A model generated the notes under the pieces. The model was not told where the DNA came from, did no database searches, and saw nothing but the letters and a program-made list of their open reading frames with translations. From contig JBMNQN010000019.1 of NCBI GenBank assembly GCA_050944155.1, positions 1 through 10,326 on the forward strand: 10,326 nt of DNA, read 5' to 3'. Positions 25 through 10,326 of the stretch are shown here, in pieces. Positions within the stretch are counted from its first letter, which is position 1, and each line of letters opens with the position of its first letter. A program made the translations under genes and the position numbers. Source of the DNA: Candidatus Methanomethylophilaceae archaeon. GTDB taxonomy: Archaea > Thermoplasmatota > Thermoplasmata > Methanomassiliicoccales > Methanomethylophilaceae.

Positions 25-2118
25 TCAGTACAGGGTGCAGAGAGCGTCGACAGCCCAGCAGCCTTTTCCCTTCTTTCCGACGATGACCGGGTTTATTTCC
101 AGTTCGCGGATTTCGGGATTCTCCAGGGATATCAGCGCGATTCTTCTGATGCAGTCTTTTATAGCGTCGATGTCCGAAGGCTCGGCGCCTCTCGCTCCCG
201 AAAGAAGCTTGAAGGCTTTCGTGGACTCGATCATTTTGTTCATCTGCTCTTCGGTCATGGTTGCGTGGGCCTGGGATATCTCTCCGAGTATCTCCACGAA
301 TATTCCTCCGAGACCGAAGGAGACCACGGGACCGAACTGGGGATCGCGGATCATGGAAAGGATGACTTCTTCTCCGGAAACCATCTGCTGTACGGATATG
401 CCGTCGATCCTGGCTTTCGGAACAGCCTTTTTGCAGCTTTCCATAATCTTATCGAAAGCGGCGCGGGCTTCTCCGTCGTTCTTTATTCCGACCAAGACTC
501 CGCCCACGTCGGTTTTGTGTGCGATGTCAGGGGACACGACTTTCATGACCACGGGATAACCCATTCCGGAAGACGCTTTGACCGCTTCGTCGGCGGATTT
601 TACGGTGGCTTCTCCGGGAGTGGGAACTCCGTACACTCTGAAGATTTCCTTTCCTTCTTCTTCGGTAAGAGCCTTTCTTCCCTCTTTTTCGGCTTTGTCG
701 AGAATCTTCTTCACGGCCTTTCTGCCTTCGGGAATCTTGGGCATTTTGAGAGGAGTCTTCTTCTCTTCGCTCTTCAGGGTGTATCCTCTGAGGGCGTCCA
801 GAGCGCGTACCGCGCGGTCGGGCGTGGGGAACGCGGGGATAAGTCCTTCCCTGAGAATGTTGGCGGCCTTTTCGCACTTGTATCCGCCCGCGAAACACAC
901 GGCGGTGGGCACGGGTATGTCGTCCCTCATTTCCACGAGCATTTCCGCAATCGCTTCCAGGTCGGCGAAGTCGAGAGGCGATCCGAGAATGACGAGACCG
1001 CCCACGCTCGGGTCTTTGACCACGATTTCGATTGCTTTCTTGAAGTATTCGGGTTTGGCGTCTCCCCTCACATCTATGGGGTTGGTCATACCCGCGATGG
1101 TGGGAACGTTTTCCAGAAGCAATCTGTTGGTTTCGTCGGAAAGTTTTGCGGCTTCCACGTATTTGGCGTCGTGGGCGGCGTCGGCGGACATTACGCCGAG
1201 ACCTCCCGCGTTGGTTATTATTGCAATGCCGTCTTTCCTCATGGGGCTGCATGTGCTGAAAACGCTGAGCGCGTCGAAGAAGTCGTCCGCGTCCCTGGCT
1301 CTGTACATGTTCAGCTTGTCGAACACAACGTCATAAACGGAGTCGGCTCCGGCGAGAGAACCCGTGTGCGAAGACGCTGCGGCGGAACCTGCGGCGGTTC
1401 TTCCGGATTTGAATACCACTATGGGCTTTTTGTTTTCGGAGTTCTCGACGGCTTCCAGAAACTCCTTTCCGTTGGATATTCCTTCGCAGTACATTCCTAT
1501 CGCTTTCGTTTTGGGATCTTCGAAAAACGCAGGAATCATGTCGGCTTCGCTTACGTCGCATTTGTTTCCGAAGGTGACGAATTTTGCAAGACCCAGCTTG
1601 TTGGCGTACGCCCAGTCGATGATCGAAGAACCGAAGGCTCCGGACTGGGAACTCATGGAGATGTTTCCCACCCTGGGAACCAGGTAGGCGAAAGTGGTGT
1701 TGACTTTGGCTTCGGGATTCATTATTCCGAAACTGTTGGGACCGAATATCCTTACGCCGTACTTCTTGGCGACGGCAACGATTTCGTTTTCCATGGCTTC
1801 GCCCCCGGGTCCGGTCTCTTTGAATCCGGCCGTGAGGATGCTCACGTACTTGGTTCCCAGTTTTCCCACCTTTTCGACTTCGTCTTTTACGAATTTCGCG
1901 GGAATGGCGATAACCGCCAAATCTACGGGCTTGCCTATTTCTTCGAAACTTTTGTAGGCTTTTATGCCCTGGATTTCTCCGCCTTTGGGATTCACGGGAT
2001 AAAGTTCGCCTTCGAACTTTGCCCCGAGCATGTTTTTCATGAGCATTCCGCCGAGTTTGTTCTCGTCGGCGGATGCACCGATTATGGCTACGGATTTAGG
2101 AGAAAGACCCTCAATCAT
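25..2118 (-). CDS. acdAB: Acetate/acyl-CoA ligase (ADP-forming), fused alpha and beta subunits
   Basis: N-terminal CoA-binding fold (PKSVAIIGAS, YPVNPK, GPNSFG), SQSGA, GNKCD, phospho-His motif ASSHTGSLAG, TNAGG and NPIDV. The C-terminal ATP-grasp has GYPVVMKVVSPDIAHKTDVGGV, DPQFGPVVSFGLGGIFVE and EINP. Start moved from 2142 to the ATG at 2118 because the domain begins there and a TATA-like box lies 32 nt upstream. Confidence 0.93.
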   Translation of the reverse strand: MIEGLSPKSVAIIGASADENKLGGMLMKNMLGAKFEGELYPVNPKGGEIQGIKAYKSFEEIGKPVDLAVIAIPAKFVKDEVEKVGKLGTKYVSILTAGFKETGPGGEAMENEIVAVAKKYGVRIFGPNSFGIMNPEAKVNTTFAYLVPRVGNISMSSQSGAFGSSIIDWAYANKLGLAKFVTFGNKCDVSEADMIPAFFEDPKTKAIGMYCEGISNGKEFLEAVENSENKKPIVVFKSGRTAAGSAAASSHTGSLAGADSVYDVVFDKLNMYRARDADDFFDALSVFSTCSPMRKDGIAIITNAGGLGVMSADAAHDAKYVEAAKLSDETNRLLLENVPTIAGMTNPIDVRGDAKPEYFKKAIEIVVKDPSVGGLVILGSPLDFADLEAIAEMLVEMRDDIPVPTAVCFAGGYKCEKAANILREGLIPAFPTPDRAVRALDALRGYTLKSEEKKTPLKMPKIPEGRKAVKKILDKAEKEGRKALTEEEGKEIFRVYGVPTPGEATVKSADEAVKASSGMGYPVVMKVVSPDIAHKTDVGGVLVGIKNDGEARAAFDKIMESCKKAVPKARIDGISVQQMVSGEEVILSMIRDPQFGPVVSFGLGGIFVEILGEISQAHATMTEEQMNKMIESTKAFKLLSGARGAEPSDIDAIKDCIRRIALISLENPEIRELEINPVIVGKKGKGCWAVDALCTLY

Positions 2119-2142
2119 GAGGCGGAAAGTATACTTTATCAT

Positions 2143-2150
2143 TCATAAAT
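2143..2150 (-). promoter_or_regulatory. Putative TATA box for acdAB
   Basis: atttatga on the minus strand begins 32 nt before the ATG at 2118, which fits a leaderless or short-leader archaeal transcript. Confidence 0.45.
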
Positions 2151-2269
2151 CTTATGGAATGTGCGGTAACGTTTTTCGAAATATCTTCAAAATACTACGA
2201 TATCCGCAGAAAAACCGATAAAAAACTGCTGAATTTGACAATATTTCGACAAAAGCAGTACGAAAATCG

Positions 2270-2304
2270 ATTAATACGTCATTGAACGCACCATTAATAC
2301 GTCA
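2270..2304. repeat. Perfect 12-bp direct repeat attaatacgtca, two copies, 23-bp period
   Basis: Copies at 2270-2281 and 2293-2304 in the AT-rich intergenic region. Confidence 0.8.
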
Positions 2305-2344
2305 AATGACTTATCGTATTTCCGGGACACACGACTCTTTACTT

Positions 2345-2367
2345 GTATGCATACGATACATTAAAGA
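2345..2367 (+). promoter_or_regulatory. Palindrome gtatgcatac followed by TATA-like attaaaga
   Basis: Perfect 10-bp palindrome at 2345-2354. The 8-mer attaaaga at 2360-2367 is identical to the one 31 nt upstream of the rpoL ATG (7844-7851). Confidence 0.4.
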
Positions 2368-2389
2368 GCATCCGTATGTCTTTATCGCT

Positions 2390-2541
2390 GCCGGACCGGC
2401 GGAAGGACGGGATCGATGAACGTCATGTGTACGGAACGGCGTACAATTACCCCCGGCGTGAGTCAGTGCTTCGAGGCCGGCGTCACCGCCGGACGATGAA
2501 AAGGCGTGTTAGCGCCCGGGGGAGACTCCCGGGCTTGTTTT
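2390..2541 (+). ncRNA. Candidate structured small RNA of unknown family (alternative: 27-aa small ORF at 2416-2499)
   Basis: GC-rich island with nested stems: 2396-2402/2486-2492, 2406-2409/2481-2484, 2428-2433/2440-2445 and 2453-2457/2476-2480. It has an upstream TATA-like box and a + oriented terminator. Confidence 0.45.
2514..2541 (+). terminator. Hairpin plus U-rich tail; may also serve the convergent metallopeptidase gene
   Basis: gcccggggg-aga-ctcccgggc forms 9 bp with one G-U pair that works only on the + strand, followed by ttgtttt. Confidence 0.7.
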
Positions 2542-2547
2542 ACGCGT

Positions 2548-3228
2548 TTAAAGATAAAGGCAGAGCCTCCTGAGCCAGTCTTCGGCTTCTTTCCGCCTGG
2601 GGAACCTGGCTTCCAGTTCCGCGAATCCTTTCTCGTGTTTCTCAGAACCCGGGTCGAATCCCAGCAGAATATGGCACAGTTCGTGGTAAAGAACGAAGTC
2701 GGCCACGAATTCCGGGATTTCCGGATTGTCCAGAACCGAAGATACGGCAATCACTTTCATGAGAACCGAACAGTACCCGACTTTTCTTACGTTGGGTTCT
2801 TTGGTCCACGACAGAAACAGTTCGGGGTCGTCTTCCGCAAGACCCATTTTCTTCAGCCTTTCGTAAGAATCTCTGAGGCTGCGGTGTTCGCCCTGAGGGG
2901 ATCTCGTAAGATTTCTGCTTCTGCGGATGTACACGGGCTGTTTGTACTTCACGAACTCCGGGGACGTGACCCATCTGCACAGTTCTTCCGAAAATTCTTC
3001 GTCCCCGTCGCAGGATATCTTTGCGAACAGCGTATCCGCCAATCCTTCGATGACTTCCGGCGGGGCGTCCGCGAGATAATCGGAAACTTTGAAATCCGCC
3101 CATCTGTAGGACCTCTGCCATCTGACTTTGAAGTCCTTGAACGCGGTGAATTCCGCATTCACTGTTTCGTATCCGTGTTTTTTTCCTGCTTTTCTGAACC
3201 TCTCCCGGAGGTCTCCTTCGTATTCCAT
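2548..3228 (-). CDS. SprT-like / YgjP (DUF45, M48-like) zinc metallopeptidase-family protein
   Basis: 226 aa with DFVLYHELCH (HExxH), a downstream H..F..L motif (KHEKGFAELE) and upstream GYCS...IAVSSVLD...PEFV. A ggagag SD-like sequence precedes the ATG. Confidence 0.8.
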   Translation of the reverse strand: MEYEGDLRERFRKAGKKHGYETVNAEFTAFKDFKVRWQRSYRWADFKVSDYLADAPPEVIEGLADTLFAKISCDGDEEFSEELCRWVTSPEFVKYKQPVYIRRSRNLTRSPQGEHRSLRDSYERLKKMGLAEDDPELFLSWTKEPNVRKVGYCSVLMKVIAVSSVLDNPEIPEFVADFVLYHELCHILLGFDPGSEKHEKGFAELEARFPRRKEAEDWLRRLCLYL

Positions 3229-3283
3229 TTGTTTTTCTCTCCCGACTCTCTCGGAGTCCGGAAAAAACAGGCTTCGGAAGGGG

Positions 3284-3291
3284 GATATAAG
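3284..3291. promoter_or_regulatory. TATA-like element (gatataag on +, cttatatc on -)
   Basis: Lies ~55 nt upstream of the metallopeptidase ATG on the minus strand. It could also fire on + at ~3311. Confidence 0.45.
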
Positions 3292-3405
3292 CCCGGAAGT
3301 ACAGTTAAGTGGGTAGAGGTTCCGCTCGGAAAAATGTACTTTGCGCCTAACTGTATGCCCCGGACCTCCGTACCCGTTTTTTTATAATGAGACGATTACA
3401 TGAAT

Positions 3406-3789: not shown

Positions 3790-3812
3790 CAATCGTTAAG
3801 TACCCGATGACA

Positions 3813-3820
3813 GTTATATA
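3813..3820 (+). promoter_or_regulatory. Putative TATA box for the HesB-like gene
   Basis: gttatata begins 36 nt before the ATG at 3849; SD-like gaggt at 3836-3840. Confidence 0.55.
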
Positions 3821-3848
3821 CTATCACAAGAATCTGAGGTTGGTTAAC

Positions 3849-4172
3849 ATGGTAAAAATTACTCCCGAAGCAGAGAACTTCATAGTCGATCTCATGGAAA
3901 AGAACAACAAGACCGGGTACGGAATAAAGATCTACCTCACGGGGTACGCCTGTTCCGGACCTCAGTTCGGAATGTCTTTCCAGGAAAAAGAAGCCGAAGG
4001 CGACATCATCGACAACGTTGCCGAGAAATTCAAGATATTCTACGACGACGAGACCAAGGACACGCTCGACGACTGCATCATCGAGTTCATCGACGATCCG
4101 AACTTCGGAACCGGTCTCACCATCCGCAACCCCAACGCAAGCGGATGCGCGTCCTGCGGCGGCTGCCACTGA
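3849..4172 (+). CDS. HesB/IscA-like (A-type) Fe-S cluster carrier protein
   Basis: 107 aa: MVKITPEAE...GIKIYLTGYACSGPQFGM...IEF...GLTIRNPNA with a Cys-rich C-terminus GCASCGGCH. Start moved from 3807 to 3849. Confidence 0.88.
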   Translation: MVKITPEAENFIVDLMEKNNKTGYGIKIYLTGYACSGPQFGMSFQEKEAEGDIIDNVAEKFKIFYDDETKDTLDDCIIEFIDDPNFGTGLTIRNPNASGCASCGGCH

Positions 4173-4180
4173 ATTTCCCG

Positions 4181-4215
4181 GGGGGGATTTCCCCCTTTCA
4201 AACCCTTTCCCCACT
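4181..4215 (+). terminator. Putative terminator after the HesB-like gene
   Basis: G-run/C-run hairpin (ggggg-attt-ccccc) followed by pyrimidine/T-rich tracts. Confidence 0.5.
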
Positions 4216-4267
4216 TTCGGACACCCCCCTGTTATTCTTTTATTCTCCTCTTACAATGGGGTGGACG

Positions 4268-5821
4268 ATGAATTACGTCTCCCATCCAAGAATTCTTCCG
4301 GGAAAAATAGAGGACAGGGAGTATCAGAGGACCGTGGCCAAGGGGTGCCTGAAAAACAATACCCTGATTATTCTTCCCACGGGTCTGGGCAAAACCGTGG
4401 TTTCTCTTTTCGTTATCGCGGAGATTCTGGAAAAAGGAAAGAAAGTTCTCTTTCTCGCTCCCACCAAACCTTTGGCGGACCAGCACGGAAAGTTCCTTTC
4501 GGAGACTCTGAAAGACACTTCGGTGGGCGTGATGACGGGAGAGACAAAACCCGAAGTCCGCGCTTCGATGGTCGACGGATACGACGTAATAGTCGCAACC
4601 CCGCAGACGGTTGCGAACGATCTGGAAAACGGACGGTACGGTACCGGAAAATTCGGCCTCGTGATTTACGACGAAGCGCACAGAGGCACCGGAAACTACG
4701 CTTACGTCACCGTCGCCAAATACTGCGGAAAAGACATTCTTTCCATGGGAATGACCGCGTCTCCCGGCAGCGATATCGCCCGCATAGAAGAAGTATGCAG
4801 CAATCTGGCACTCCGCCGCATCGATATGAGGGACGAGGGAGATCCGGACGTTTCTCCCTTCGTTTTCGACACTTACGTAAAAAGAATCGAAGTCGGGATG
4901 CCCAAAGACCTTCGTGACATAATCGCTCTTCTGAGGAAAATGCTGGACCACTACATTACGGAACTTACGCATCTGGGTCTTTTCGATTCCCATTGGCCTC
5001 CGTCCACCAAACACCTTCTCGTCGTTGGAGAAACTCTTCAGAGAAGACTGGCTTCCGGCGAAAAAAGCGCCACGGTTTTCAGAGGTCTTACGGTTCAGGG
5101 AATCTGCATAAAACTTCTTCACGCGATAAGTCTGGCGGAGACCCAGGGAATGAGCGCTCTGAGAGCCTATCTTCTGAAACTTTCTTCCGAATCGAAAAAA
5201 GTGAAATCCAGCAAAGGAACCAAGGAACTCGCCGAACGGAAAGAGTTCGCCGAAGTCATGGAAATCACTATGAATTCGTCGGTGGAACATCCCAAAATAT
5301 CCAGAGTCATGAGCATAGCCAGCAGAATAATAAATTCGGGTTCCGGGTCCAAAGTGATAGTGTTCACCCAATACCGGGATACCTGCGACATGCTCGTGGA
5401 AAAGCTGTCCATAATACCCGGGGCAAGGGTGGGAAAACTCATCGGCCAGTCCAGGGGCGGACTGAAACAGAAGGAACAGATAGAAGTCCTGAAAGGTTTC
5501 CGGGACGGGACGTACAACATAGTTGTATCAACGTCCGTGGGAGAAGAGGGACTGGACGTGGCGAGCACCGACGCCGTAATATTCTACGAACCGGTGCCGT
5601 CGGAGATACGGACTATTCAGCGCAGGGGCCGTACAGGAAGGAAGAACGACGGGGAAGTTTACGTTCTGATCGCCAAAGGAACCATCGACGAAGTGTTCGA
5701 AAGATCCAGCCTGAAAAAGGAAAGTCTGATGCGTTCGAGACTGGAAAATCTCGGCAGAATCCTCGAGCAGAGGGAAAATTCCAAAGAAAGGGGACAGATG
5801 AAACTGGGAGATTTTCACTGA
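4268..5821 (+). CDS. hef: Hef/FANCM (Mph1, ERCC4-related) SF2 DEAH helicase, helicase-only form
   Basis: 517 aa: REYQ, LPTGLGKT, LAPTKPL, ATPQTVANDL, DEAHRGTGNYAY, MTASPG, HPK, IVFTQYRDT, STSVGEEGLD and YEPVPSEIRTIQRRGRTGR. C-terminal PIP-like QMKLGDF. Start set at ATG 4268 (MNYVSHP), 30 nt after ttttattc. Confidence 0.92.
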   Translation: MNYVSHPRILPGKIEDREYQRTVAKGCLKNNTLIILPTGLGKTVVSLFVIAEILEKGKKVLFLAPTKPLADQHGKFLSETLKDTSVGVMTGETKPEVRASMVDGYDVIVATPQTVANDLENGRYGTGKFGLVIYDEAHRGTGNYAYVTVAKYCGKDILSMGMTASPGSDIARIEEVCSNLALRRIDMRDEGDPDVSPFVFDTYVKRIEVGMPKDLRDIIALLRKMLDHYITELTHLGLFDSHWPPSTKHLLVVGETLQRRLASGEKSATVFRGLTVQGICIKLLHAISLAETQGMSALRAYLLKLSSESKKVKSSKGTKELAERKEFAEVMEITMNSSVEHPKISRVMSIASRIINSGSGSKVIVFTQYRDTCDMLVEKLSIIPGARVGKLIGQSRGGLKQKEQIEVLKGFRDGTYNIVVSTSVGEEGLDVASTDAVIFYEPVPSEIRTIQRRGRTGRKNDGEVYVLIAKGTIDEVFERSSLKKESLMRSRLENLGRILEQRENSKERGQMKLGDFH

Positions 5822-6087: not shown

Positions 6088-7848
6088 ATGCTTTTCTCCG
6101 AAGTGGCGGACCTGTTCGACAGAATAGAAGCCGAACCCAGCCGTTTGGCCATGACGTCCATTCTGTCCGATTTTTTCAGAAACGCTCCGAAGGAAAGACT
6201 GGCAGACATCGTCTATCTGATTCAGGGCAAGCTCCGTCCGGACTTCTACCCCCAGGTACTGGGTATGTCGGATAAACTGGTAATCAAAGCTATAGCGGCC
6301 ACTGCGGGAATGCCCGAACAGGAAGTTACCGCAGCGGTAATCAAAGAAGGAGATCCGGGAACCGCGGCCGAAAAACTCATAAGCAAAAAGAAGCAGATGA
6401 CTCTGTTCTCGAACCCTTTGACTCTGGAAAGGGTTCTGAAAAGCCTGAGAGATATAGAAAATGCGGAAGGAAAGGATTCCCAGAACAAAAAGACGAAGAT
6501 ACTGTCCAACATGCTCCACGATTCCGGACCCGCCGAAGCGAGATATCTCTGCAGAATCGTAACCGGAAGGATGAGAGTGGGCGCCGGAGCCATGACCGTA
6601 TTGGACGCTCTCGCCGAAGCTTTCGCGTCCAAGGAAGACCGTCCCGAAATAGAGAGGGCGTACAACGTAACCTGCGATCTGGGTCTTGTGGCCGAAACCG
6701 TGGGGACCGGCGGAATGGACGCCGTGAAGAAAATCGGAGTCAAGGTGGGAAACCCGCTGAAAGTCATGCTTGCGGAAAGGCTGCGCAGCATACCAGAAAT
6801 CATAGAAAAGATGGGCGGAAAATGCGCCATGGAATACAAGTACGACGGGATACGGGTTCAGGCCCACATATCCGAAGACGGAGTGAAACTGTATTCCAGA
6901 AGACTGGAAAATCTGACTTCCAACTTCCCTGACATCGCCGAGGCCCTAAAACGGAAGTACAGAGGAAAAGAGGCTATAATCGAAGGGGAATGTGTGGCCG
7001 TAGACGGAGAAGGAAAGATGCTTCCTTTCCAGACCGTCACCCACCGCAGAAAGAAACACGGAATGAGCGACGCCGTGAAAGAATATCCCGTCAGAATTTT
7101 CATGTTCGACATTCTCTATTCGGACGGGGAAGACCTTACGGGAAAACCGTATCCGGTCAGAAGGGAAACCCTGGGAAAAATGTTCGATATCTCCGAAAAC
7201 GTGGGAATGACGGAAATGAAAATGATTTATTCCGATGACGAGGGAAAAGAATTTTTCGCCAGAGCTCTGGAAGACAGGTGCGAAGGAATCATGGCTAAAT
7301 CCGTCGCCGAAGATTCCGTGTACAGAGCGGGGTCCAGAGGATTTCTCTGGATTAAGTACAAAAAAGACTACCAGCAGTCTCTTGTCGATTCTTTCGATCT
7401 CGCCGTCGTCGGCGCGTTCTACGGAATGGGAAAGAGAGCGGGAAAGTACGGAGCTCTGCTCATGGCCGTTTACGACCCGGATACGGATTCCTACGGAACC
7501 GTGTGCAAACTGGGTACGGGATTCGACGATGAATTTCTGGAAAAACTTCCCGATATGCTCGAACCGTATCTTTCGGAAACGAAACCTTCCAACGTCGATG
7601 CGCGCATGATTCCCGACGTGTGGTTCGATCCCGCCGTCGTGCTGGAAGTCACCGGGGCGGAGATAAGCATCAGTCCCATCCACACGGCAGCATCGGGCTT
7701 CGTGAAAGAAGATTCCGGCCTGGGAATACGTTTCCCCCGCTTTACCGGAAGAGTGCGCGGCGACAAAGACGCATCCGAATGCACAACGTATTCCGAAATA
7801 GCCGAAATGTACGCCCTTCAGAAACCCGCGGACGCAGGCAAAGATTAA
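6088..7848 (+). CDS. lig: ATP-dependent DNA ligase (archaeal ligase I type)
   Basis: 586 aa with an N-terminal DNA-binding domain, motif I EYKYDGIR, YSRRLEN, EGECV, FDIL, EGIMAK, WIKYK, G.G.R.G and RFPRF. Internal PIP-like QMTLF. Confidence 0.97.
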   Translation: MLFSEVADLFDRIEAEPSRLAMTSILSDFFRNAPKERLADIVYLIQGKLRPDFYPQVLGMSDKLVIKAIAATAGMPEQEVTAAVIKEGDPGTAAEKLISKKKQMTLFSNPLTLERVLKSLRDIENAEGKDSQNKKTKILSNMLHDSGPAEARYLCRIVTGRMRVGAGAMTVLDALAEAFASKEDRPEIERAYNVTCDLGLVAETVGTGGMDAVKKIGVKVGNPLKVMLAERLRSIPEIIEKMGGKCAMEYKYDGIRVQAHISEDGVKLYSRRLENLTSNFPDIAEALKRKYRGKEAIIEGECVAVDGEGKMLPFQTVTHRRKKHGMSDAVKEYPVRIFMFDILYSDGEDLTGKPYPVRRETLGKMFDISENVGMTEMKMIYSDDEGKEFFARALEDRCEGIMAKSVAEDSVYRAGSRGFLWIKYKKDYQQSLVDSFDLAVVGAFYGMGKRAGKYGALLMAVYDPDTDSYGTVCKLGTGFDDEFLEKLPDMLEPYLSETKPSNVDARMIPDVWFDPAVVLEVTGAEISISPIHTAASGFVKEDSGLGIRFPRFTGRVRGDKDASECTTYSEIAEMYALQKPADAGKD

Positions 7849-8129: not shown

Positions 8130-9434
8130 ATGAAATACCGGCTCTGCGAAACCGATGAAAAAGAAATCGGGATGCTGTATTATCTCAGCACCGCCGACGG
8201 CACCGGGGGACGTATCAAAGTTCTGCCCGAAGACTTCGAGGTAAACGAAGTTTCGGAAGGTCCCGAGGAAGATCCGAACGGGAAATATACGATAGCCAGA
8301 GTGAAAAGCTCAAACTGGGAAACGAACCGCATGGTCCGTCTCATGTCCAGAAGTCTGGGGGTTTCGAGAGAGAAAATCGGGTTTGCCGGAACCAAGGACA
8401 AAAGAGCCGTAACTTCCCAGCTTATGTCTTTTCAGTGTTCTCCCGAAGAACTGGGAAAAATAAATCTCAAAGATATCGAGATAACCGATGTTTACAGAGC
8501 CAGACGTCCGATAAAAATCGGAGAGCTTGCGGGAAACCGATTCAGCATTAAGGTAAAAGAGACGGAGATGCCTCCGGAAAAGATACCCGAAACCCTGGAA
8601 TCCGTTCTGGGAGACATACGGGAAACGGGAGGGTTTCCCAATTACTTCGGAGTCCAGAGATTCGGAGTGGTGAGACCGGTAACCCACAGAGTGGGAGAAA
8701 AACTGGTACGCGGGGATACGGAGGGCGCAGTGAGGGACTATCTTTCGTATCCGTCCGTGTTCGAAAACGAAGAAGTGGCCGAAGCAAGAAAGGAACTGGC
8801 ACAAAGGGACGATTGGGGGGAACTTCTGAAAATAATGCCTCAATCTATGGGATTCGAAAAGTCGATGGTGGGGCATCTTGCGGACAATCCAGGTGACTGG
8901 AACGGCGCCATAGAATCTCTTCCCGGAAACCTCCAGATGATGCTGGTACACGCCTATCAGTCGTACATTTTCAACCTGATGCTCAGCGAGAGGATGGAAA
9001 GAGGACTTCCGCTGAACGCTCCCGTGGAAGGTGATTCGGTCCTTCCGATATGTGCGGACGGAACGCCCGACCATGAACATCCTTCCGAGGTAACTTCCAA
9101 AAATATCGATTTGGTAGCCAATCAGGTAAAATCGGGAAGGGCCGCCGTTGCCATAACCGTGTTCGGAAGGGACAGCGTTCCCAGGGGCGGAGAGATGGGA
9201 GAAATCGAAGCCCGCGTCATAGAAAGAGAAGGCATAAAAACTTCCGATTTTACCGTTGTGGGTCTTCCCAGATGCAGTTCCAAAGGAAGCATGCGGGAGA
9301 TCGTCTGCCCCGTGAAAGATCTGAAATATTCCGCGGACCCGGACGGTTATGAAATAAGCTTCTATCTCACGAAAGGAAACTACGCGACCTGCCTCATGCG
9401 GGAATTCATGAAATCGGAAATGCTCAGCTACTGA
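8130..9434 (+). CDS. truD: tRNA pseudouridine(13) synthase TruD/Pus7
   Basis: PEDFEVNE, NWET, FAGTKDKRAVTSQ (catalytic Asp), GNRF, FPNYFGVQRFG, HAYQSYIFN and LTKGNYAT. The start directly abuts the rpoL stop (TAAATG). Confidence 0.96.
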   Translation: MKYRLCETDEKEIGMLYYLSTADGTGGRIKVLPEDFEVNEVSEGPEEDPNGKYTIARVKSSNWETNRMVRLMSRSLGVSREKIGFAGTKDKRAVTSQLMSFQCSPEELGKINLKDIEITDVYRARRPIKIGELAGNRFSIKVKETEMPPEKIPETLESVLGDIRETGGFPNYFGVQRFGVVRPVTHRVGEKLVRGDTEGAVRDYLSYPSVFENEEVAEARKELAQRDDWGELLKIMPQSMGFEKSMVGHLADNPGDWNGAIESLPGNLQMMLVHAYQSYIFNLMLSERMERGLPLNAPVEGDSVLPICADGTPDHEHPSEVTSKNIDLVANQVKSGRAAVAITVFGRDSVPRGGEMGEIEARVIEREGIKTSDFTVVGLPRCSSKGSMREIVCPVKDLKYSADPDGYEISFYLTKGNYATCLMREFMKSEMLSY

Positions 9435-10326
9435 TTTTCTTCAGCGATGCTGCGCCGTACACACCGAGACCGGTACTCTTCATTATGTCGAAAACGGACA
9501 TTCCGGCATATTCTTCGGAAGCGAGACCTTTCACGTCCTCCGGAACCTGCCCGTCTCCGCGGGCGGAATTCATGGCCGAATACACGTAAGAGACGAGAGT
9601 TTTCGCTTCGTCCGAATCATTCGAGCCACCGGCAACATACGCGGCGGGTATGGAAATTATCGGATCTTTTTCTATGTCCGTAAGATTCGCTCTCATCACC
9701 GCGTTATGGGAAAGCTTCTCCAGTCTCTCGTATTCCGGGGTTCCGGGAATTATTTCTCCGTATTCCGAAATGTCGGAAAGGTAATCCATGACTGCTTCGA
9801 ATACTGCGTAATCCAAATCGAGTACGTTTTCGATTCCGGGGTCGTCTAGGGAACGTTTTGTTGCGTAGGCTCTGCGCAGAAGACTTTCCGCGTGTCTCTT
9901 CACGGAAACGGGAACGTCTCCCGCCGCTTTCCCGCCGGAGACGTTTGCGGCTCTTCCCGCCATAACCGAAGCTTCCTGGGGACGTCCGCTTTTCATGAGT
10001 ATTTCGGACATCTCTTCCAGAAGTTTCACGTCCGGGTCGGGAGTCCTGAGCAGATTCCTGTACATCTCGGCGACTCCGTCCGGATTGCGGCGTTCGGAAT
10101 ATATTTTCGCCTTGAGAACCATGGCTTCCGCGTTGCCGGGTTCGTCGGAAAGAACGGTATCCACTGTTCTGTCCGCTTCCTTGATGTCTCCCTTGAGGTA
10201 CTGCGCGTTGGCGAGACGTATGCGGGGACCGTTGTCTTCCCCGCACTTGGTGACCGCCATCGAAAACTCCGAAACGGCTCCGTCCAAATCTCCCGTCTTC
10301 TCTTTCGCGTCTCCCAGTTTGACGTA
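9424..10326 (-). CDS. Tetratricopeptide-repeat protein, 5'-partial (runs off the window)
   Basis: The frame stays open beyond 10287 to the window edge (YVKLGDAKEKTGDLDGAVSEF...). TPR-like helices include LANAQYLKGDIKEA, EPGNAEAMVLKAKIY and LMKSGRPQEA. A non-TPR C-terminal domain follows. There is an 11-nt convergent overlap with truD. Confidence 0.82.
   Translation of the reverse strand, partial: YVKLGDAKEKTGDLDGAVSEFSMAVTKCGEDNGPRIRLANAQYLKGDIKEADRTVDTVLSDEPGNAEAMVLKAKIYSERRNPDGVAEMYRNLLRTPDPDVKLLEEMSEILMKSGRPQEASVMAGRAANVSGGKAAGDVPVSVKRHAESLLRRAYATKRSLDDPGIENVLDLDYAVFEAVMDYLSDISEYGEIIPGTPEYERLEKLSHNAVMRANLTDIEKDPIISIPAAYVAGGSNDSDEAKTLVSYVYSAMNSARGDGQVPEDVKGLASEEYAGMSVFDIMKSTGLGVYGAASLKKISS

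Follow-up and report, generated by a model that had tools for sequence, protein, structure and literature searches.

Archaeal box H/ACA RNAs comprise one to three motifs, each containing a kink-turn (K-turn) or kink-loop (K-loop) to which L7Ae binds, and a 3' ANA box that is needed for Cbf5 binding (PMC2377435). The guide RNAs Pab40, Pf7 and Afu-4 of Pyrococcus and Archaeoglobus consist of three such motifs in tandem, each with its K-turn or K-loop, and a 3' ANA; their third, 3'-most motif guides pseudouridine formation in stem-loop 69 (helix 69) of 23S rRNA, at P. abyssi position 2016, and the other motifs act in domain V (PMC2377435). The 3' stem-loop of Haloferax volcanii sR-h45 also guides helix 69 pseudouridines, namely 1940 and 1942 (PMC7075261). 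Here, we describe a locus at positions 2390-2541 on the + strand of a 10,326-nt stretch of DNA from a Candidatus Methanomethylophilaceae archaeon of the order Methanomassiliicoccales (assembly GCA_050944155.1, contig JBMNQN010000019.1; the whole stretch is referred to as the window). The locus is likely a gene for a small RNA of the box H/ACA type, a two-hairpin variant of a family that normally has three hairpins.

Compared by description only, the family resembles Pab40, Pf7 and Afu-4 in its tandem array of three motifs, its K-motifs, its 3' ANA and the predicted action of its 3'-most hairpin on helix 69. It differs from them in that the window copy has two hairpins, the first without a real pocket, and in that the A-loop as target of the middle hairpin is a prediction made here and is undocumented for Pab40. 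With sR-h45 the family shares K-turns with tandem G-A pairs, an ANA (H) box between hairpins and a terminal ACA, and the stem-loops of sR-h45 work independently of each other, which fits the loss of one module at the present locus (PMC7075261). By contrast, the spacer of sR-h45 is 56 nt long, its 'UNUN' stays unpaired so that two pseudouridines are made, and the target of the 5' stem-loop is not the A-loop but U2605, which lies between helices 90 and 93 (PMC7075261). In our RNA the second U of the site (U1953) would pair with the guide. Box C/D sRNAs likewise have K-turn or K-loop motifs that bind L7Ae, and the GAUGA of our RNA resembles box C. Typical archaeal C/D sRNAs are about 50-70 nt long, whereas this RNA measures 140-225 nt and its K-turns are apical in hairpins instead of being formed from the RNA ends.

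A widely conserved, single-copy RNA family

An earlier note on this DNA had proposed an unannotated structured small RNA on the + strand with K-turn-type motifs, and that much is borne out: the sequence motifs make it a probable ligand of L7Ae, and the collection of homologues revealed a conserved and covarying family. More specifically, BLAST searches against 40 relatives returned matches in 18 of 24 same-family genomes, in two conserved blocks, one at 2389-2445 with about 80% identity and one at 2448-2526 with up to 96%, that lie about 87 bases further apart in every relative. A degenerate pattern derived from the second block found 69 stretches among GTDB species genomes, 63 of them in Methanomassiliicoccales, Methanomethylophilaceae or Thermoplasmata archaea and the remaining 6 in bins named as bacteria, which are probably mis-binned contigs. 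A hidden Markov model (HMM) of the RNA matches all 69 stretches, 66 of them over its full length.

A covariance model (R1) built from 68 sequences gave a single full-length match, 211-235 nt long, in 146 of 151 sampled genomes of the order Methanomassiliicoccales, spanning all 7 families and 34 of 34 genera. At E <= 0.01 it matched 93 of 151 sampled genomes of the class, in 24 of 27 families, a tally that counts one unpublished genome (G240), on which no result here rests. The typical RNA of relatives is about 225 nt long and has three hairpins; the window copy (138.1 bits, E 2.5e-33) is the shortest complete match, at 145 nt. The RNA family is unannotated, single-copy and widely conserved. 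Shortened forms occur in two other lineages, L163 (genome G144, 180 nt) and L162 (genome G033, 195 nt), where a short unrelated stem replaces hairpin 1 and hairpins 2 and 3 are retained. These forms suggest that a single module has been lost more than once. We found no description of this RNA in the literature on H/ACA RNAs or pseudouridine in Methanomassiliicoccales or Thermoplasma, for which journal coverage was incomplete; the main text of a 2014 comparative genomic study of the order that used Rfam, as far as it is accessible, does not list such an RNA (PMC4153887).

Applied to 17 aligned sequences (alignment A2), RNAalifold predicted three independent hairpins. In this alignment 98.3% of the cells of the three-hairpin fold are paired and 22 of its 59 pairs show compensatory changes, a result reached by 0 of 500 shuffles. 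In a larger alignment of 68 sequences (A3), 98.8% of cells are paired and 30 of 49 pairs are compensatory (365 compensatory cells; 0 of 500 shuffles), and slid controls for the fold gave 32-45% (A2) and 33-43% (A3). Rows cut by contig ends (L037, L069) or aligned only from model position 39 (L075) were excluded from A3, and cut or duplicate rows (L013, L020, L021) from A1 and A2. About 100 of the 979 paired cells in A2, summed over the pair table, are G-U pairs; on the minus strand they would turn into A-C mismatches, which identifies the + strand as the structured one.

The earlier note had held that the RNA is not a tRNA, 5S rRNA, signal recognition particle (SRP) RNA, RNase P RNA or C/D guide, and searches with Rfam and ARAGORN and a box C/D scan agree. 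Rfam 15 at gathering thresholds gave no match in the window or in the loci of seven relatives, ARAGORN found no tRNA in the window, and the SRP RNA and RNase P RNA of the source genome lie on other contigs. On the + strand between 2388 and 2545 both box C (RUGAUGA) and box D (CUGA) are absent, which sets the RNA apart from C/D guides. The best sub-threshold match in a search at E up to 10, Rfam family RF02837 (anti-hemB), scored at chance level (18 bits against a gathering threshold of 49.5, E 0.12); this Burkholderia sRNA shares with positions 2451-2542 a GC-rich hairpin and a U run, a generic terminator-like resemblance. The note had left the RNA without a class, but it can be assigned to one: hairpin, internal loop, K-turn or K-loop and 3' ANA together make up the anatomy of archaeal box H/ACA guides.

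Hairpin anatomy and candidate rRNA targets

The coordinates of all features are collected in Table 1. Hairpin 3 comprises helices 7-10 of the fold in A2 and 7-9 in A3, and it is up to 96% identical to the hairpin of same-genus relatives. From the 3' side of its pocket to the ANA box (2508-2522) there are 15 nt, exactly as the published spacing of 15 +/- 1 nt between pocket and ANA prescribes (PMC7075261), and the second spacing rule is likewise matched exactly, with 9 nt from A2474 to G2466. Hairpin 2 of the relatives also agrees with both rules (6 + 9 = 15 nt; 9 nt), has a K-motif of the form [G/U]A ... NNU-GA and is followed by ANA in 67 of 67 sequences.

Compensatory changes are found in each helix of hairpin 1 (helices 1-2 in A2, 1-3 in A3), the lower stem of which has here an extra mismatch, G2394-A2436, compared with same-genus relatives. 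Its K-loop takes the form stem-N-GA-...-UGA-N-stem, with the 5' GA in 67 of 68 sequences and UGA in 68 of 68; A-N-A follows the hairpin in 63 of 67 relatives, and the other 4 have UCA or CCA. Hairpin 2 is present in all 66 full-length pattern matches and in 16 relatives. An HMM of hairpin 2, searched at E up to 10, had no match in the source genome (92% complete) and 44 matches in control loci. The junction sequence of the short form, within 2430-2470, is ACAAUUACCCC.

Two observations concern hairpin 2 within the order. In Methanomethylophilaceae (L003-L094) its 5' guide strand forms a covarying mini-hairpin (CCCUAC/GUAGGG, CCCUAA/UUAGGG and others; A3 columns about 71-90), turning the pocket into a three-way junction. 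In the other families of the order the pocket is open.

Table 1. Features of the RNA locus and other genes of the window, in window coordinates
Feature	Positions	Strand	Details
acs, ADP-forming acetyl-CoA synthetase	25-2142	-	Pfam ATP-grasp_5 1.2e-74, Succ_CoA_lig 2.1e-47
TATA-like A/T box	2360-2367	+	ATTAAAGA; about 28 nt 5' of conserved RNA start
Conserved RNA, two-hairpin form	2388-2532	+	covariance model
Hairpin 1	2391-2439	+	lower stem CCGGACCGGC / GUACGGAACGG, internal loop GGAAG / AUGU, upper stem GACG / CGUC
K-loop of hairpin 1	2410-2420	+	GGAUCGAUGAA; 5' GA 2411-2412, 3' UGA 2417-2419; GAUGAA 2415-2420 is the 3' half
ANA box of hairpin 1	2443-2445	+	ACA, 3 nt past stem
Linker	2446-2449	+	AUUA; site of hairpin 2 (about 85-95 nt) in relatives (alignments A1-A3)
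Hairpin 3	2450-2522	+	lower stem 2450-2459 / 2512-2522, pocket, upper stem, K-turn, apical stem CCGGCG-UCAC-CGCCGG
Hairpin 3 pocket, 5' side	2460-2465	+	GAGUCA; GUCAGU invariant in 68/68; GUCA can pair with UGAC of helix 69 loop
Hairpin 3 K-turn, non-bulged strand	2473-2474	+	GA, in 68/68
Hairpin 3 K-turn, bulged strand	2494-2499	+	C-GAU-GA; UGA in 68/68; C2494 pairs with G2475
Hairpin 3 pocket, 3' side	2508-2511	+	GUUA; UGUUA invariant in 68/68; can pair with UAAC of helix 69 loop
Terminator-like hairpin	2514-2534	+	GCCCGGGGG-AGA-CUCCCGGGC, then UUGUUUU; whole element 2514-2541; terminator scan
ANA box of hairpin 3	2523-2525	+	AGA here; A-N-A in 68/68 (ACA 66, AUA 1, AGA in the window)
SprT/YgjP-like protein	2548-3228	-	weak Pfam matches
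Fe-S biosynthesis-like protein	3807-4172		Pfam, below cut-off
DEAD/ResIII helicase	4145-5821		Pfam
ATP-dependent DNA ligase	6088-7848		Pfam
tRNA pseudouridine synthase TruD	8130-9434		Pfam
TPR protein	9424-10287		Pfam

Candidate targets were sought in the 23S and 16S rRNA of the source genome, which stand in for those of the relatives, with pocket borders set by the two spacing rules. In an unbiased scan of each uridine of the large-subunit (LSU) and small-subunit (SSU) rRNA, hairpin 2 placed LSU U2585 first in 13 of 23 sequences, with 14-17 contiguous pairs; all 13 lie outside the window's family (13 of 18). The target context is UGGGGUUGU[UC]GCCCAUU(A), and the scores of 38-40 exceed a shuffled maximum of 32-33, with 0 of 300 shuffles reaching them. 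The predicted target of hairpin 2 in relatives is the A-loop (helix 92) of 23S rRNA, in which we take U2585 to be about E. coli U2555, beside U2552 and G2553. Of 16 loci examined, 15 share the same A-loop target sequence. In the window's own family the match of hairpin 2 to the A-loop drops to about 9 bp by our own count. The equivalent of E. coli U2580, which by our own numbering offset is the target of stem-loop 1 (SL1) of sR-h45, was ruled out by eye as a site for hairpin 2.

For hairpin 3, two sites lead across the order: LSU U1951 in the helix 69 loop (about E. coli U1915), in the context GGUAAC[UA]UGACCC with Watson-Crick pairs throughout, and LSU U2372 (about E. coli 2336-2342), in the context CUAGC[UU]GACUCGG with G-U pairs. 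Pairing with helix 69 extends over 13 bp in 17 of the 68 family sequences, whose guides read GGGGUCA ... GUUAUC or GUUACC, and over 8 bp in the other 51, the window included; 8 bp is the minimum for activity (De Zoysa 2018 as cited in PMC7075261). Pairing with U2372 covers 8-10 bp in 67 sequences and 12 bp (6 + 6, with 2 G-U) in the window. We favour helix 69 as the target of hairpin 3 because the invariant GUCA and GUUA are exactly its pairing letters, because both guide arms lengthen together in the 13-bp clade, and because it is the 3'-most H/ACA hairpin that guides helix 69 pseudouridines in Pyrococcus and Haloferax. The pocket border predicted by both published rules also yields the helix 69 site, and 19 of 20 loci examined have the same stem-loop there. 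The best scores of hairpin 3 are suggestive only, as 15-19 of 300 shuffles reach those of the best guides and 90 of 300 that of one f3 guide.

LSU U946 (5 + 5 bp, 3 G-U), a candidate that arose from loosely set pocket borders, was dropped since it breaks both spacing rules. The 35 tRNAs, SRP RNA and RNase P RNA, scanned as targets, gave at most 8 bp. In several families hairpin 1 points weakly to a U-rich, low-complexity stretch at LSU 2637-2643 (8-11 bp).

A few observations stand beside these results. The window has G at 2460 (UGAGUCA) where 45 of 50 other sequences of the same guide class have A (UAAGUCA), and this G raises complementarity to U2372 on that side from 4 to 6 pairs. Window positions 2501-2513 share a 13-base same-sense identity, AAGGCGUGUUAGC, with the organism's own 23S rRNA (contig C2, LSU 1713-1725), of which a rough estimate expects about 0.01 by chance. 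About 19 kb separate the 16S (C2:37991-39460) and 23S (C2:58507-61423) genes, which share a contig; this agrees with a report that rRNA genes are unlinked in the order (PMC4153887).

The locus and its partners

The RNA locus sits inside a 405-nt gap between two minus-strand genes, acs and the gene of the SprT-like protein. Long + strand open reading frames overlying these two genes have zero Pfam matches. The start near G2390 that the earlier note had predicted from the ATTAAAGA box at -28 is reasonable, and the conserved start falls at 2388-2391. Of 59 same-family loci, 53 have an A/T-rich octamer at -18 to -42, compared with 8 and 31 of the 59 when two control windows are taken, and TATA-like hexamers in these loci peak at -26 to -28 (46 of 63 occurrences). 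The box at 2360-2367 would accordingly be placed to act as a promoter of the + strand RNA, a role we infer from its sequence and position.

The terminator that the note had described fares less well. Its hairpin and U run are recovered by a terminator scan of 2100-2700, which found 3 sites where 0.6 are expected. This hairpin, however, takes as its 5' arm the 3' strand of hairpin 3's lower stem, which makes the two folds mutually exclusive, and a run of at least 4 T within 45 nt downstream is found in only 24 of 86 relatives. Because the T run is rare in relatives and the stem reuses a strand of hairpin 3, we regard the element as a local feature outside the RNA family. With it falls the extent given to the RNA: the conserved RNA is about 138-145 nt long here, and the terminator stem overlaps its last hairpin.

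The source genome (1.04 Mb, 27 contigs, 92% complete) encodes Cbf5 (399 bits), Nop10 (66.5 bits) and two L7Ae-family proteins (94.5 bits for the L7Ae family), all above cut-offs. Small parts of the region 1800-3300 of the window are contained in 9 sequencing runs; contigs of four of them (X1, X2, X3 and X7) cover 1800-2085, 2114-2447, 2599-2752 and 2968-3189, and none of them reaches into 2448-2598. A 334-base contig of X1, probably a DNA run, equals 2114-2447 without a difference and stops exactly at the hairpin 2 junction. Its end at 2447/2448 may reflect strain variation in the sample or low depth.

Rival readings and biological meaning

If the locus is an H/ACA RNA gene, as we consider likely, the + strand would be transcribed from the TATA-like box, and each hairpin would, as in the archaeal H/ACA ribonucleoproteins (RNPs) that have been characterised, recruit Cbf5, Nop10 and L7Ae (with Gar1), the K-turn or K-loop serving as the L7Ae site and the 3' ANA as the anchor of Cbf5. 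The two sides of the internal loop would then pair with rRNA flanking a uridine, which would be converted to pseudouridine. In relatives, hairpin 2 would act on the A-loop (helix 92) and hairpin 3 on the helix 69 loop. In the window copy, hairpin 3 would act on LSU U1951, on LSU U2372 or on both, and would be the sole plausible guide activity because hairpin 2 is missing and hairpin 1 lacks a usable pocket.

Several observations weigh against this assignment. Some archaeal H/ACA families are present in Rfam, and nothing matched; minimum free energy fails to single out the region (z-scores of -0.49 on the + strand and -0.24 on the - strand). At about 5 x 4 nt, the internal loop of hairpin 1 leaves too little room for a normal pocket, its distance to the ANA box is about 18 nt and thus outside the spacing rule, and the scan gave hairpin 1 no consistent rRNA target. 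The mini-hairpin in the hairpin 2 guide strand of the window's family is atypical. Hairpin 3 of the window pairs with helix 69 over just 4 + 4 bp, at the quoted minimum, and the rival site U2372 scores above helix 69 here, with some pairs that need the top of the lower stem to be opened. Shuffled sequences attain the top rRNA score of the window's guide in 26 of 300 cases; a wider scan made earlier gave 41 of 200 for its own best score. Gar1 (PF04410) was not found in the 92%-complete genome, with a model that missed one of four archaeal controls. Finally, X2, X3 and X7, the three of these runs that are recorded as RNA, have contigs only over 1800-2085 and 2599-2752, in acs and part of the SprT-like gene.

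The fold that the earlier note had drawn, a new L7Ae-binding RNA whose three-way junction has a K-turn-like outer stem as its closure, starts from complementary strings that do exist (ccggcgg 2396-2402 and ccgccgg 2486-2492, flanked by cgga 2392-2395 and acgatga 2493-2499, besides cgatgaa 2414-2420 and attaaaga 2360-2367). Two of its helices are 89% and 95.6% paired in relatives, and the empty Rfam result suits a new RNA. In the same alignment of 17 sequences, however, this junction with its long-range outer stem is 78.6% paired against 98.3% for the three-hairpin fold; 4 of its 24 pairs show changes on both sides, a count that 25 of 500 shuffles reach, the tip of arm 1 is 53.9% paired, and in relatives a whole extra hairpin lies inside 'arm 1'. 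The partners of the K-turn are local, not long-range: GAUGA at 2495-2499 pairs with GA at 2473-2474 and not with cgga. The 'box C-like' strings of the note thus survive as genuine halves of K-motifs, in the hairpin 3 K-turn and the hairpin 1 K-loop, and cgga does not survive as their partner; the alternative fold of gacg with cgtc at 2421-2424 is unsupported. We hold the three-way junction to be very improbable. Hardly any credence goes to a cis element of a neighbour, whether as a leader for acs or, for the SprT-like gene on the minus strand, as a terminator or a structure in its 3' UTR. Synteny in the family (all 30 loci have the SprT-like gene beside the RNA, and 25 of the 30 have acs close by) and a hairpin at 2514-2534 that abuts the SprT-like stop codon speak for such an element, yet the G-U pairs counted above would be A-C mismatches on the minus strand, and the ANA boxes, the polarity of the K-turns, the promoter box and the rRNA complementarity are valid only on the + strand.

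The remaining alternatives accept the family and differ on the window copy. An unlikely one is that the copy is a decaying remnant of an H/ACA RNA that directs no modification: hairpin 2 is missing and has no copy elsewhere in the genome, the hairpin 1 lower stem has its extra mismatch, the 3' box is AGA where 66 of 68 sequences have ACA, complementarity to helix 69 is at the 8-bp minimum, and the genome is small (1.04 Mb). Against decay, hairpin 3 remains up to 96% identical to that of same-genus relatives with every invariant position retained, AGA is still within ANA, the promoter-like box keeps its conserved position, and the shortened forms of G144 and G033 look like modular loss instead. 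That the missing hairpin 2 is an assembly artefact, the organism having a three-hairpin RNA, would fit a 27-contig assembly, an X1 contig that stops at 2447 with no contig bridging 2445-2450, and the fact that no other genome among the 146 matched in the order lacks hairpin 2. We think this rather improbable, as the junction has no long flanking repeat able to collapse and the X1 contig, which may come from the window's source sample, has ACAAU after hairpin 1, as does the window and unlike all relatives. Within the H/ACA reading, a speculative and unlikely extension is that the lineage of the window has remodelled its RNA and not merely trimmed it: the A-loop guide would have been discarded, the pocket-less hairpin 1 would only nucleate or stabilise the RNP, and hairpin 3 would have drifted from helix 69, the ancestral target (13 bp in guides of ancestral type, 8 bp here), towards U2372, to which the window-specific G2460 raises the match to 12 bp.

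Taken together, an RNA family missed by Rfam-based annotation is found in nearly all genomes of an order of methanogens from guts and digesters, and across much of the class. Its predicted guides address helix 69 and the A-loop, both functional centres of the large ribosomal subunit, and the H/ACA assignment would explain why Cbf5 and Nop10 are retained in these genomes. The copy without hairpin 2 predicts an organism that lacks an A-loop pseudouridine expected in its relatives. The pocket-less hairpin 1 and the guide-strand mini-hairpin of Methanomethylophilaceae may bear on the limits of the canonical H/ACA plan, and remodelling, if true, would represent, in an archaeon whose genome is reduced, natural guide retargeting and an H/ACA module without a guide role.

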